From positions 81,220,001 through 81,284,000 of the forward strand of contig NC_135812.1 in NCBI RefSeq assembly GCF_964213995.1: a stretch of 64,000 nt of DNA, read 5' to 3'. Each line of letters begins with the position of its first letter. Position 1 is the stretch's first letter. Below the pieces are notes generated by a model. That model worked only from the letters and a program-made list of their open reading frames with translations, made no database searches and was not told where the DNA came from. This document shows positions 8,614 to 37,757 of this stretch, piece after piece. The translations under genes were made by a program, and so were the position numbers. Source of the DNA: Mustelus asterias (Eukaryota).

Positions 8614-8859
8614 TGATGCGCTATCAATAAGGCGAAAGACTACCGATATGCCAATATAAGTGTAGGCTTTTATTCACAACAGAATCAGGAGCAGATCCCA
8701 ACAAATAACCGACCTGGACTGAACAAGGGGGAGGAGACAGCCACCTTTATACTAGGTGCTGAGGGGAGGAACCAAACTGGAAGGGGATGTGTCCAGGTAT
8801 GACAAGCGCACACAACGGTGGTCCATATAGGACAAAGGTACAACCTGAGGTCCACCACA
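8614..8859 (-). mobile_element. Solo LTR related to the Gypsy element at 32914-37324
   Basis: TG...CA ends; colinear with LTR 32914-33152 (gcgctatcaat, gtaggcttttattca, cacctttatactagg, gtccaccaca); TSD GTTAC at 8418-8422 and 8860-8864. Confidence 0.9.
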
Positions 8860-32647: not shown

Positions 32648-32913
32648 AAGAACAAAGAAAAGTACAGCACAGGGACAAGCCCTTTGGCCCTCCGAGCCTG
32701 TGCCGATCATGGTGCCCTAACTAAGCTAAAGAAAAAACTTCTGCCCTTACTCAGTTCGTATCCCTCTATTCCTTCCCTATTCATGTACCCATCCAGACAC
32801 CACCTATTCGTTGCTAAAGAGCCTGCTCCCACCACCTCCTCTGGCAGCATGTTCCAGGCACCGACCACTCTGTGTAAAAAAACTTCCCCCGCACATCTCC
32901 CTTAAACTTTCCC
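32648..32913 (-). mobile_element. CR1 LINE 3' end (host of the Gypsy insertion)
   Basis: aagaacaaagaaaagtacagcacagg tail; continues at 37325. Confidence 0.85.
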
Positions 32914-33152
32914 TGAAGCGCTATCAATTAGGCAAAAGACTACTTGTGTGCCAATACAACTGTAGGCTTTTATTCATTACAGAATTAGGAGCACATCCCA
33001 ACAGGTAACCGACCCAGGCTGAGCAAGGGGGGGGAGACAGCCACCTTTATACTAGGTGACAAGGGGAGGAGCCGGCAGGGGATGTGTCCAGGCGTGACAA
33101 ACACGACAACGGTGGTCCAGACAGGACAAAGGCGCAACTGTAGTCCACCACA
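32914..33152 (-). repeat. 3' LTR (239 bp)
   Basis: TG...CA ends; minus-strand TATAAA and AATAAA; direct repeat of 37114-37324. Confidence 0.95.
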
Positions 33153-33166
33153 TTCACCCCTCCTTT
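33153..33166 (-). other. Polypurine tract
   Basis: Minus strand AAAGGAGGGGTGAA abuts the 3' LTR and is preceded by a U-run. Confidence 0.85.
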
Positions 33167-33198: not shown

Positions 33199-34410
33199 TC
33201 ACAAGTTCAGACGATCTGGTGGCTTGATCCGCCGTCGCGATCGTCGTAGTGCAGGTTGCAGAGTCGTCCGAGCAAGGAGCGGAGTCAGCCCAGGCACTGA
33301 GCGTCGAGAGGAGGCGCCAGGTGGTGTGAGGCGGAACCATCCATTGTCCCGTCCAGTAGTCGGGTACTGCGTGGCGACGGCACCGGCGACTCAAGCGAGC
33401 TGTACATAGGGGTGAGGGAAGTGAGCTGTGGCCCTGGTGGTGTATGGAGAACAGAGGGAACTGGGGCTGGGGGGCGGAGGGACGTAGTGGGCTCTGGGCG
33501 CACAACACAAGGGACTGGGACAGTGGGGCGGAGGGACGTGGTGGCCTCAGGGGCACCTGCGGGTGCCAAGTCACAGACAGAGACTGTATCCTCCTGCCCA
33601 TCAGGGTATGCCACGTAAGCATATTGAGGATTAGCATGTGGCAATTGGACCCTCTCGACCAAGGGGTCTGCCTTATGGGTCCGGACATGCTTCCGAAGCA
33701 GAACGGGCCCAGGGTACATCAGCCAAGCTGGGAGCGAGGTACCCGAGGAGGACTTTCTGGGGAAAGTGAACATCCGCTCGTGAGGGGTCGTATTGGTCGT
33801 TGTACACAAGAGTGACCTAATTAATTGAATGGAGTGCATCCGGGAGGACGTCTTGCCAATGGCTGACTGGAAGGCCCCTAGAGTGTAGCGCTAATAGAAC
33901 AGCCTTCCAGACAGTTGTGTTCTCCCGCTCCACTTGACCATTACCCCTGGGGTCATAGCTAGTGGTGCGGCTGGAGGCAATGCCTTTGGCGAGCAGGTAC
34001 TGCCTCAGCTCGTCGCTCATGAATGAGGACCCACGGTCGCTATGAACATAGGATGGAAAACCGAACAGGGTGAAGAGCGTGTTCAGGTCTGAATCACCGT
34101 AGCCGTGGTCATGTCCGGGCAGGGGAAGGCAAAAGGGAAACGCGAATATTCATCGATGACATTCAGAAAATAAATATTGCGGTTAGAGGAAGGGAGGGGG
34201 GCCTTTAAAATCAATGCTGAGGCGCTCAAACGCGCGAGTGGCCTTTATAAGGTGCGCCCTACCTGGCCGATAGAACTGCGGCTTGCACTCTGCGCAGACC
34301 CTGCATTGCCTCGTAACCGACCGGACTTCCTCGAGGGAGTAGGGCAGGTTACGGGCTTTGACAAAGTGGAAAAATCTGGTGACACCCGGGTGATAGAGAT
34401 CATTATGGAG
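33199..34410 (-). pseudogene. Integrase (frameshifted), no chromodomain
   Basis: HHCC (LHNDLYHPG...CRVCAEC), DFKGP, HSDRGSSFMS, GNGQVER; P/S/T-rich tail ending RRSRRRIKPPDRLNL*. Confidence 0.9.
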
Positions 34411-35833
34411 AGACTAGCTGAACTAGTTGGGCGCTGGCACATGTTCCACGGGACAGGGCGTCTGGGGGCTCATTGAGCTTCCCAGGCCGGTACATGATAT
34501 CATATCTAAAGGTGGCGAGCTCAATCCTCCACCGCAAGATCTTATCATTTTTGATCTTGCCCCTCTGCCTGGTGTTGAACAGAAAGGCAACGGACCACTG
34601 GTCCGTAAGTAAAGTCAACCGTTGGCCCGCAAGGTAATGGCGCCAGTGCCGGACAGCTTCCACGATGGCCTGGGCCTCCTCCTCAACCAAGGAGTGTCAA
34701 ATCTCAGGGCCTTGTAGGGTCCGGGAAAAAAAGGCCATCGGACGGCCCCTTTGGTTAAGGGTGGCGGCTAGGGCAAAGTCAGATGCATCACTTTCCACTT
34801 GGAATGGGATGGATTCATCCACAGCATGCATCGCGGCCTTCGCGATGTCTGCTTTGATGTCGTCGAAGGCCAGATGGGCCTCCTCCGCCAGGGGAAAAGA
34901 GGTCGATTTGAGAAGCGAACGGGCTTTATCCGCATAACGGGGAACCCACTGGGCATAGTAGGAGAAGAAGCCCAGGCATCTCCTCAGTGCTTTGAGAGTA
35001 GTAGGGAGGGGAAGCTGCATAAGGGGAAGCTGCATAAGGGGACGCATACAGGCTGGATCGGGACCAAGGACACCATTTTCCACCACGTACCCAAGGATAG
35101 CGAGGCGGCGTGTCCGAAAGACACGCTTCGCCTTATTATATGTCAAATTCAGGAGAGTGGCAGTACGGAGGAATTTTTGTAAGTTGGCATCATGGTCCTG
35201 CAGGTCATGGCCGCAGATGGTGACATTATCCAGATACGGGAAAGTGGCCCGTAGCCCGTGCTGGTCCACCATTTGATCCATGGCCTGCTGGAAAACTGAG
35301 ACCCCATTGGTAACACCAAAAGGGACTCGGAGGAACTGGTAGAGGCGACCATCCGCCTCAAAGGCAGTATATGGGCGATCCTCCGAGTGGATAGGGAGCT
35401 GGTGGTAGGCCGATTTTAAATCAATCATGGAGAAAACACTATCGTGCACGATGCGATTGACCATGTCAGAGATGCGGGGAAGAGGGTGCGCATCTAGTTG
35501 CGTATACCTGTTTATGGTCTGGCTATAGTCGATCACTATGCGGTGTTTCTCCCCCGATTTAACTACGACCACCTGCGCCCTCCAGGGGCTGGTGCTGGCC
35601 TGAATGATCCCTTCCTTGAGCAAAGGTTGTACTTCGGACCGAATGAAGGCCCGGTCTTCCGCGCTATAGCGCCTACTTTTGGTGGCTATAGGCCTGCAAT
35701 CCGGGATGAGATTATCGAATAAAAGAGGTGGGGCAATCTTGAGGGTCGAGAGACTGCAGGTGGTGCGCGGGAGGCGCTTAAGTAACGGCACATTGCAGAC
35801 ACAGAGCGGGGAATAAGGGCCATCATACTGCAA
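34403..35833 (-). pseudogene. pol: Reverse transcriptase / RNase H (in-frame stop at 34697)
   Basis: SPW, IDYSQTIN, IDLKSAYHQ, VPFGVTNG, YLDN, LGFFSYY, ESDASD, LLTDQ. Confidence 0.95.
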
Positions 35834-35843
35834 AGTGACGCTC

Positions 35844-36290
35844 CTATGATGGATGGGGAAATCTAACCCCAGCAGTACAGCTGCAGAGTTGCGGCAGCAC
35901 GAGGAGCCGAAAACGCTCGTAGACTGTGCCCTGTACCGTCAGCGTCACCACGCAGCACCCAAGGACATCCACTGAGTGAGAATCCGAAGCCATGGAGATT
36001 GTCCGTCTCCAGGGCCGCATGGGAAGGGCATATCGACGCACTGTGCGAGGGTGTATAAAACTCTCTGTGCTCCCGCAGTCGAACAAACAGTTTTCTACAT
36101 GGTTGTTTACCTTAATCTCCATCGTTGACTTGGAGAGTTGGTGAGGCTGAGATTGGTCTAGACGAATTGATGCAACCGTCGAACCCAGTGAGTATTCATA
36201 TTCGTCTGCGTCTGATGATGTCGCGGATGAAGTTTCCCGCTCGGCACGCCTTGATGACGGCACCCAAGATGGCGATTTCCGTGCAGCCAC
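35844..36290 (-). pseudogene. Aspartic protease region
   Basis: CLFDCGSTESFI (D-S/T-G-like active site). Confidence 0.8.
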
Positions 36291-36345
36291 TGACTACATC
36301 AAAGATGCCGATTCCCGTGCAGCCACTGACTGCATCAAAGATGGC
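36267..36345. repeat. 36-bp tandem duplication in the gag-protease linker
   Basis: aagatggcgatttccgtgcagccactgactacatca followed by aagatgccgattcccgtgcagccactgactgcatca. Confidence 0.85.
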
Positions 36346-37088
36346 GGCACCCGCGGAACACACATGGCACCACGAGACTTTGTGATCGACTTCGCCCGGC
36401 AGACTTTGACGAAATGGCCTTGCTTACCGCATCCGGAGCAGATCGCATCCTTCGCCGGGCAGCGACGCCGAGGGTGGTTGGCTAGGCTGCAGAAGTAGCA
36501 TTTGAGCCCCGCTGGAACAGCCACTGCGGTGGAACCGTCGATGGAACGGCATGCATTCTAGGCCCTGAGATTGCGGGAGGCCGCTTCTAGGGATTCAGCC
36601 ATCGTGGCCGTTTTCTGGAGATCCAGGCCACCCTGTTCAAGCAGGCACTGCCGAATGTAAGTAGACTCAATACCTGCGACGTAGGCGTCCCGGAACATGT
36701 CCTCCGTGTTCTGAGCGGTTAAAACAGCCTTACAGTCGCAAGCTCGAGCTAGGACCCGCAGGGCGCGCAGAAACTTGGCGCACGATTCTCCTGGCTGCTG
36801 CCTGCGAGTAGCCAAGAAATGTCTGGCGTAGACCACATTAGGGCCCTTTTGAAACTGCCCTTTCAAGAGTTCTATAGTGTCCACGTATGTAGTAGCATCC
36901 CGGAATATACAGTAGACTGTATCGCTTACCTGGGCGCGGAGCACGCGGAGCTTATCACCGTCGGAGTCAATGACCGCAGAGGTGCTGATGAAAGCTTCAA
37001 AACAGTCCAGCCAATAGTCAAAACTATCAGAATCTCTGACCTCTTGAGGGTCCAAGGTTAATCTGTCAGGCTTCAAAAGCTGCTCCAT
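36294..37088 (-). pseudogene. gag: gag with two CCHC Zn-knuckles (in-frame stop at 36558)
   Basis: ATG at 37088 (MEQLLKPDRL), RQQPGES, CYFCSLANHPRRRC, CSGCGKQGHFVKVC. Confidence 0.9.
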
Positions 37089-37113
37089 ATCGGTCAAAGG
37101 TAATGAATGAAAT

Positions 37114-37324
37114 TGAAGCGCTATCAATTAGGCAAAAGACTACTTGTGTGCCAATACAACTGTAGGCTTTTATTCATTACAGAACTAGGAGCATATCCTA
37201 ACAGATAACCGACCCAAACTGAACAAGGGGGAGGGAACAGTCACCTTTATACTAGGTGACAAGGGGAGGAGCCAGCAGGGGATGTGTCCAGGCATGACAA
37301 ACACAACGGTGGTCCAGACAGGAC
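37114..37324 (-). repeat. 5' LTR, missing its outer ~25 bp
   Basis: Matches 32914-33127 and then runs directly into CR1 sequence; no TSD retained. Confidence 0.93.
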
Positions 37325-37757
37325 TTAAACCTGTGCCCCCTTGTAATTGACACTTCCACCCTTGGAAAAAGCCTTTGACTATCCACTCTGCTTATGCCTC
37401 TCATTTGTAGACCTCTATCAGGTCTCCCCTCATCCTCCATCTTTCCAGTGCAAACAATCCTAGTTTATTCAACCTCTCTTTGTTGTCAACGCCCTTGAGA
37501 CCAGGCAACATCCTGGTGAACCTTCTTTGCACTCTCTCCAAAGCTTCCACTTCCTTCTGATAGCAAGATGACCAGAACTGCATGTAATACTCCAAATGTA
37601 GTCTAACCAAGGTTTTATAGATCTGCAACATAATTTCCCAACTCTTGTACTCAATGCCTCAGCTGATGAAGGCAAGCATGCTATATGCTTTCTAATCACT
37701 TTGGCCACCTGTGTTGCCACTTTTAGGGAACTGTGGACCTGCACGCCCAGATCGCTC
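37325..37757 (-). mobile_element. CR1 LINE ORF2 fragment (upstream continuation of 32648-32913)
   Basis: YKTLVRLHLEYYMQFWS, LERVQRRFTRMLPG, RMRGDLIEVYK. Confidence 0.9.

Follow-up and report, generated by a model that had tools for sequence, protein, structure and literature searches.

A candidate self-primed clade of animal Gypsy elements whose primer-binding site pairs with its own LTR

A Gypsy element on the minus strand of the Mustelus asterias genome carries, directly behind its 5′ LTR, a primer-binding site (PBS) that complements a segment of that same LTR, and the resulting duplex is real and present throughout the clade to which the element belongs. We consider it likely that members of this clade start reverse transcription from a fragment of their LTR RNA, which would be cut and extended in place, and not from a tRNA. 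To our knowledge self-priming has been demonstrated for Tf1 only and counts as characteristic of the Tf1/sushi chromoviruses; one case in Copia has been predicted besides. The element lies in a stretch of 64,000 nucleotides (the window; NC_135812.1, positions 81,220,001 to 81,284,000), in which we place the following features, all on the minus strand and numbered from the first nucleotide of the window:

37324-32914, minus: Gypsy element, a copy of family A
37114..37324, minus: 5′ LTR, about 26 nt missing from its start (alignment with the 3′ LTR and 29 sister copies)
37246..37251, minus: TATA box, TATAAA (sequence and family spacing)
37217..37222, minus: Inr-like TCAGTT; transcription start predicted at about 37220 from motif spacing
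37168..37180, minus: predicted self-primer segment with AATAAA at its end (pairs and covaries with the PBS)
37164..37167, minus: GCCT right after the predicted cut site; opens a small hairpin in distant families
37100..37112, minus: putative PBS, 1 nt past the LTR and without TGG (pairing with the LTR segment)
37090..37098, minus: leader stretch with predicted partner 37206-37212, a second stem in family A (predicted fold)
33567..37088, minus: gag-pol, with two CCHC knuckles, protease, RT-RNase H and an integrase without chromodomain
33153..33166, minus: polypurine tract plus AA ahead of the 3′ LTR
32914..33152, minus: 3′ LTR, complete, 239 bp, TG...CA (comparison with the 5′ LTR)
8614..8859, minus: solo LTR belonging to sister family B; its primer segment differs from that of family A

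The 5′ LTR ends at 37114 (...GCGCTTCA) and is followed by one spacer A and then by TTTCATTCATTAC (37112-37100), which is complementary at 12 of 13 positions to the LTR segment GTAATGAATAAAA (37180-37168), located 55 nt upstream and containing AATAAA. An initial annotation of the window had described this 12/13 pairing and its overlap with AATAAA, together with the absence of a TGG tRNA-type PBS behind the 5′ LTR and a gag ATG only 25 nt past it (its A at 37088), and each of these observations holds in the window copy. A DNA search of the host genome returned 2,506 candidates, from which 29 other family-A copies were fetched; since all 29 pair at the position of the single mismatch (37109), this mismatch is private to the window copy, and in 19 of these sister copies the duplex runs unbroken for at least 13 bp. 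The predicted fold of the window leader includes the duplex at −33 kcal/mol (z −1.86), a modest margin, with 10 of 200 shuffles equally good; the second stem (37090-37098 with 37206-37212) is absent from the predicted folds of some families.

By its TG...CA LTRs, its polypurine tract and its PR-RT-RH-IN order the element belongs to Ty3/Gypsy, with a size of about 4.2 kb and LTRs of about 240 bp, and a second copy of the primer segment lies at 32968-32980 within the 3′ LTR. The gag-pol frame of the window copy is disrupted by stops and frameshifts, with the RT-RH frame still open at 34697-35938. A small deletion removed the LTR start and the left target-site duplication, and the flanks (37325-37700 and 32750-32913) resemble pieces of one LINE 3′ region hosting the insertion, a LINE that we take to be CR1-like. 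The 5-bp flanks of the solo LTR at 8614-8859 are unequal, and sister solo LTRs show clean 5-bp duplications. Between the two LTRs of the window copy (37114-37324 vs 32914-33127) 15 of 215 columns differ, the differences being confined to the first 144 columns and the last 71 identical, and the LTR pairs of other copies with intact target-site duplications likewise differ at subfamily markers. Such differences suggest frequent intermolecular plus-strand transfer or conversion; being common within single copies, they make dating based on LTRs unreliable or biased.

To sample the clade blind to the PBS, we used two foreign gag N-termini as queries, which yielded 157 distinct loci among the 300 matches listed, 100 of them picked by hand; these 157 loci added 14 further segment variants, each with its matching PBS. 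A distant set came from a profile of 28 Pol proteins, which found 65 metagenome loci and 10 loci in genome bins, with a gag start detectable in 37 of the 75. (Ten contigs carrying the clade, L186-L195, sit in bacterial genome bins, probably as host contamination.) Anchored on gag, at least 11 of 12 positions form Watson-Crick pairs in 172 of 195 host-genome loci, a tally that takes in 30 copies chosen for likeness to the window's own leader, and in 31 of 37 distant loci, as opposed to 2 of 390 and 0 of 74 dinucleotide shuffles, respectively. The longest perfect duplex measures 13-18 nt in 21 of 22 representatives and 10 nt in the remaining one, as compared to averages of 6-8 nt and maxima of 7-12 nt in shuffled leaders. 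Overall the duplex spans 11-18 bp, the segment ends in ...AAA, and the PBS begins 1 nt past the CA of the LTR in all families compared. Among the five low-scoring distant loci, the duplex becomes visible in L141 and L142 via the copy at the other contig end and reaches 11 bp in L187; no clear duplex was found in L149 and L169. Distant families have short LTRs (about 85-200 nt in loci with both copies visible) that seem unrelated from one family to the next but are laid out identically.

That the two partners change together emerged from a panel with one copy per family, picked by hand and anchored on best pairing, comprising 21 distant families (three of them close kin) and 16 host-genome variants. 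In own-family combinations positions 6-13 pair at 0.98, whereas PBSs swapped between families pair there at 0.47 (distant) and 0.69 (host genome), and none of 5000 permutations matched the observed value; slid registers pair at only 0.17-0.35. Shuffles, swaps and slid registers thus reject chance pairing of AT-rich sequence. Covariation between PBS and LTR, proposed in the initial annotation as a check, is present both across subfamilies and in distant hosts. A more pointed forecast had been drawn from the solo LTR of family B, whose different segment predicted a correspondingly different PBS in its subfamily. Of 29 other family-B LTRs fetched, most are solo LTRs and eight have gag behind them; examined blind, all eight gag-linked copies carry TTTTATTCACAAC opposite GTTGTGAATAAAA. 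We also considered that the window copy had lost a TGG site by deletion, with other copies retaining it. This was rejected: neither the 29 sister copies nor any of 232 loci has a true TGG-type site at the PBS position, the sole regex match (L335) falling within U5. As a control, each of 11 copies of a different Gypsy family from the host genome has a TGG-type site.

The 3′ end of an LTR is set by the annealing position of the minus-strand primer. Self-priming, as the initial annotation had put forward, is the best reading of these data because the minus-strand primer must anneal exactly where the duplex sits; and the primer would be the element's own LTR segment because this is the only RNA able to pair at that site in every family. 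The covariation, the fulfilled forecast from the solo LTR and the lack of a TGG-type site at the PBS position all support it. We propose that transcription would start at the Inr, about 53 nt ahead of the duplex end, so that the segment would lie inside R and not at the cap, and that the 5′ leader would fold back onto the PBS. By analogy with Tf1, the element's RNase H would then cut the AAA|RCC junction and leave a capped primer of about 53 nt with its last 13-17 nt paired. Having copied U5 back to the cut, reverse transcriptase would transfer to that part of the 3′ R which lies between cut position and poly(A) site, and plus-strand synthesis would copy the primer, re-templating the PBS from the LTR segment again and again. 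Such re-templating would explain how easily PBS and segment change together.

Promoter motifs bear on where the primer would lie. In the window copy TATAAA occupies 37251-37246, as the initial annotation had it, and its Inr at 37219-37223 turned out to be one base off, the motif being TCAGTT at 37222-37217; the segment begins 40 nt past the Inr A. Among nine host-genome families examined, TATAAA stands 83-86 nt ahead of the duplex end in eight and an Inr-like motif 50-53 nt ahead of it in seven. The TATA-Inr spacing is conserved at the usual value, and the segment is therefore predicted about 40 nt inside the transcript, in line with the earlier proposal that it does not lie at the cap, the start itself being predicted from motifs. 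No consistent promoter motif was found in the 14 distant families examined. Past the duplex, RCC comes first in 17 of 19 distant families, and a small hairpin is formed in 13 of 19, versus 1.6 expected by shuffle. The distant family L163 keeps the duplex with a different junction (segment end ...AAAT, spacer T, no RCC), and the AAA|RCC motif is therefore not obligatory. The central duplex was present in all 20 predicted leader folds, the flanking stems being variable, and a three-duplex pretzel of the Tf1 type was not conserved in these 20.

If the PBS is re-copied from the primer, it should travel with U5, and the LTR segment with U3. In a linkage test on 83 copies of one family, 71 were concordant and 12 discordant at one site, and the PBS was linked to U5 with r 0.41-0.44 versus 0.27-0.28 for the segment, a slight excess that distance alone could explain. 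The 3′ LTR was located for nine of the 12 discordant copies; in five of them (two duplicates) the PBS matches the 3′ LTR, and in the copies L271, L286, L292 and L304 the PBS allele is unlike both LTR segments and goes with the U5 marker of the 5′ LTR, the marker lying at a CpG-prone site in two of the four. These four copies fit templating by the primer, a weak signal that we regard as suggestive.

Could the duplex serve another end, with some different primer acting? It might do nothing but mask the poly(A) signal of the 5′ LTR, or regulate gag translation. The segment ends in A(A/T)TAAA in all 16 host-genome variants and in 12 of 21 distant families, one family has changed AATAAA to ATTAAA with a compensating change in its PBS, and the duplex terminates 5-15 nt ahead of the ATG, all of which such a role would accommodate. 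Yet the remaining nine of the 21 distant families keep the duplex without a canonical hexamer, two of them having the hexamer in a loop outside it, and masking is therefore not the sole reason for the duplex. Its start is moreover fixed 1 nt past the LTR end, and the PBS takes many different sequences that no other primer fits, so that we judge a duplex devoid of any priming role quite unlikely. Where segments contain AATAAA, the self-priming duplex would additionally conceal this poly(A) signal in the 5′ LTR but not in the 3′ LTR; masking may be its second role.

A further possibility is that the same LTR segment primes from elsewhere, either as the copy in the 3′ R of a partner RNA or as short transcripts of solo LTRs trimmed at AAA. 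With transcription starting upstream of the segment and polyadenylation falling downstream, it is present in each of the two R copies; solo LTRs, too, are numerous, and sequence cannot separate action in cis from action in trans. However, cutting the 3′ copy would presumably destroy the acceptor of the first strand transfer, and folding in cis is favoured in each of the 20 predicted folds; priming by another molecule therefore appears improbable to us. As to tRNAs, a clear match of the PBS to a tRNA fragment would have spoken against self-priming, but the PBSs of eight host-genome families match the tRNAs retrieved (about ten isotypes, mostly from Thr and Lys arrays) over at most 6-7 nt. (At about 97.2-98.7 Mb of contig C16, genes for tRNA-Lys(UUU) and tRNA-Thr form large tandem arrays with a period of about 1.8 kb.) The LTR segments of 19 distant families resemble nt 12-24 of the host tRNA-Thr(AGU), with a mean identity of 8.89/13 (ceiling 9.42) in a comparison made post hoc over about ten isotypes. 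None of 200,000 random 13-mers did as well, the stretch ranked top among 2,572 13-mers of the retrieved tRNAs, and the next isotype scored 6.79; by eye, over tRNA nt 12-43, the RCC...GGY hairpin behind the segment also resembles the anticodon stem of tRNA-Thr(AGU). This average of 8.9 of 13, with some families matching 11-12, might mean that the true primer is tRNA-Thr(AGU), as a 5′ fragment with its end in the D-loop, and that the LTR segment does no more than mirror the PBS. We consider this very improbable: host-genome PBSs match the tRNA at 6-9 of 13 positions but their own LTR at 12-13, and for every PBS the own LTR is a better partner than tRNA-Thr, except for a tie in one distant family. 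A tRNA primer would also restore a constant PBS again and again, whereas the actual PBS follows the LTR. The likeness is possibly a relic of tRNA priming, or a mimic, and not the present primer. A fuller version of the self-priming reading, which we advance tentatively and hold to be less than even in probability, is that the clade came to prime itself independently of Tf1/sushi, by incorporating its ancestral primer into the LTR; primer and hairpin would then mimic, or be left over from, the D-arm and anticodon arm of tRNA-Thr(AGU), and the cut would fall inside the capped leader at the poly(A) signal.

The initial annotation had placed the element outside the chromoviruses, on an integrase without chromodomain. 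No chromodomain was detected in the frames of the window; Chromo and SH3_Tf2-1 were found in none of the 12 clade proteins scanned, both being detected in the control, and PF00385 was absent among the 120 homologues listed. The clade has the RT motif PWRAQV and a branch support of 100/100, and two CCHC arrays are present in Gag, both in the window translation and in relatives. The clade comes out as sister to Mag-like rows in both trees computed, with support of 96/86 from RT-RH (45 rows) and of 89 from RT-RH-IN (42 rows, six having been dropped without a joint hit); we take these sister rows to be Mag-like from their motifs and not from named references. Chromovirus rows, which comprise algal and plant elements and no fungal or vertebrate Tf1/sushi, group apart from the clade in the best trees. 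The stem branch of the clade is long (0.6-0.7 changes per column), and a constraint uniting clade and chromoviruses was not rejected (AU p 0.19 and 0.21). Domains, the clearer evidence, and best trees argue for a placement outside the chromoviruses, with the clade best placed beside Mag-like elements, while a position as sister to the chromoviruses stays compatible with the data. A search of the host genome for chromoviruses with PF24626 gave weak matches only, from other lineages, a protein search from a chromovirus query gave algal and plant elements only, and scans of viral contigs found no relative. The host genome also has retrovirus-like elements with long open pol frames (L226-L228, L234, L208-L216), which served as outgroup only. 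Among the 120 homologues listed, the nearest named ones are from catsharks and rays (63-78% identity), and named members occur in Trichuris, Trichinella, Actinostola, Apostichopus and Styela, known here from protein records alone. Cigr-1, which we take to be a plausible name for the clade and set beside it by description only, presumably has a 245-bp LTR and a single ORF, which would fit. It is classed under Mag in a supplement of PMC6238403, and two CCHC arrays in Gag, shared by the clade, are described for Mag and Micropia/Mdg3 in excerpts of PMC2577118.

Excerpts of the literature place self-priming in Tf1/sushi, Tcn1 and Copia TAR (PMC6317226, PMC3601003, PMC5006619, PMC6238403, PMC3670739, PMC4600332, PMC2864245, PMC10085805, PMC2577118, PMC5341516, PMC7175516, PMC6934838, PMC5445492, PMC8220671). 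Akin to the present clade, Tf1, Tf2, Tj1 and Tf1/sushi are described in such excerpts as lacking a tRNA PBS and having a post-LTR PBS complementary to their own 5′ LTR (PMC7175516, PMC4600332, PMC10085805). In Tf1, as excerpted, the first 11 nt of the RNA pair with the PBS, a length similar to that of our duplex, and RNase H cuts the primer off between nt 11 and 12 (PMC7175516; for the removal by RNase H also PMC5341516). As opposed to Tf1/sushi, the clade has neither chromodomain nor SH3_Tf2-1, carries two CCHC knuckles and is compact (about 4.2 kb). Whereas the primer of Tf1 is the 5′ end of the RNA, that of the clade is predicted to lie about 40 nt into the transcript and to overlap the poly(A) signal; the three-duplex pretzel of Tf1 is not conserved in the predicted folds of the clade, and its priming is what we infer from sequence. 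Outside the chromoviruses, self-priming had been predicted earlier from PBS-LTR complementarity for the Copia TAR lineage (Houba, Osr-1), according to the excerpted text of PMC6317226; that lineage is plant Ty1/Copia, whereas the present clade has Gypsy domain order and lives in animals. Half-tRNA priming in Copia (Osser, Bryco, Bianca), with anticodon-region halves of tRNA-Met or tRNA-Ile (PMC6317226, in excerpt), would be a precedent for an ancestral tRNA-fragment primer, although the clade resembles the D-arm of tRNA-Thr and bears that likeness in the LTR itself. In full-text literature and parts of the supplements of PMC6238403 and PMC8556966 we found no description of self-priming in a non-chromovirus animal Gypsy clade; subscription papers, Repbase or GyDB may hold an earlier note.

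Taken together, the mechanism proposed is a known one; what sets it apart here is the lineage, the predicted internal position of the primer, the poly(A) signal that the primer overlaps and, possibly, an ancestry in tRNA-Thr. If true, it would represent a further and probably independent origin of self-priming, with another geometry, in a large clade of animal Gypsy elements whose named homologues span cartilaginous fishes, a tunicate, a sea cucumber, a sea anemone and nematodes. Its members would be independent of tRNA supply and of silencing by 3′-tRNA fragments, and LTR finders that rely on the PBS would misjudge them. Should the tRNA-Thr relic also prove true, a single duplex would do double duty, providing the primer and keeping 5′ polyadenylation silent, and a change from priming by tRNA fragments to self-priming would be on record in this clade. 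The likeness to tRNA-Thr offers a testable handle on how tRNA priming and self-priming interconvert.
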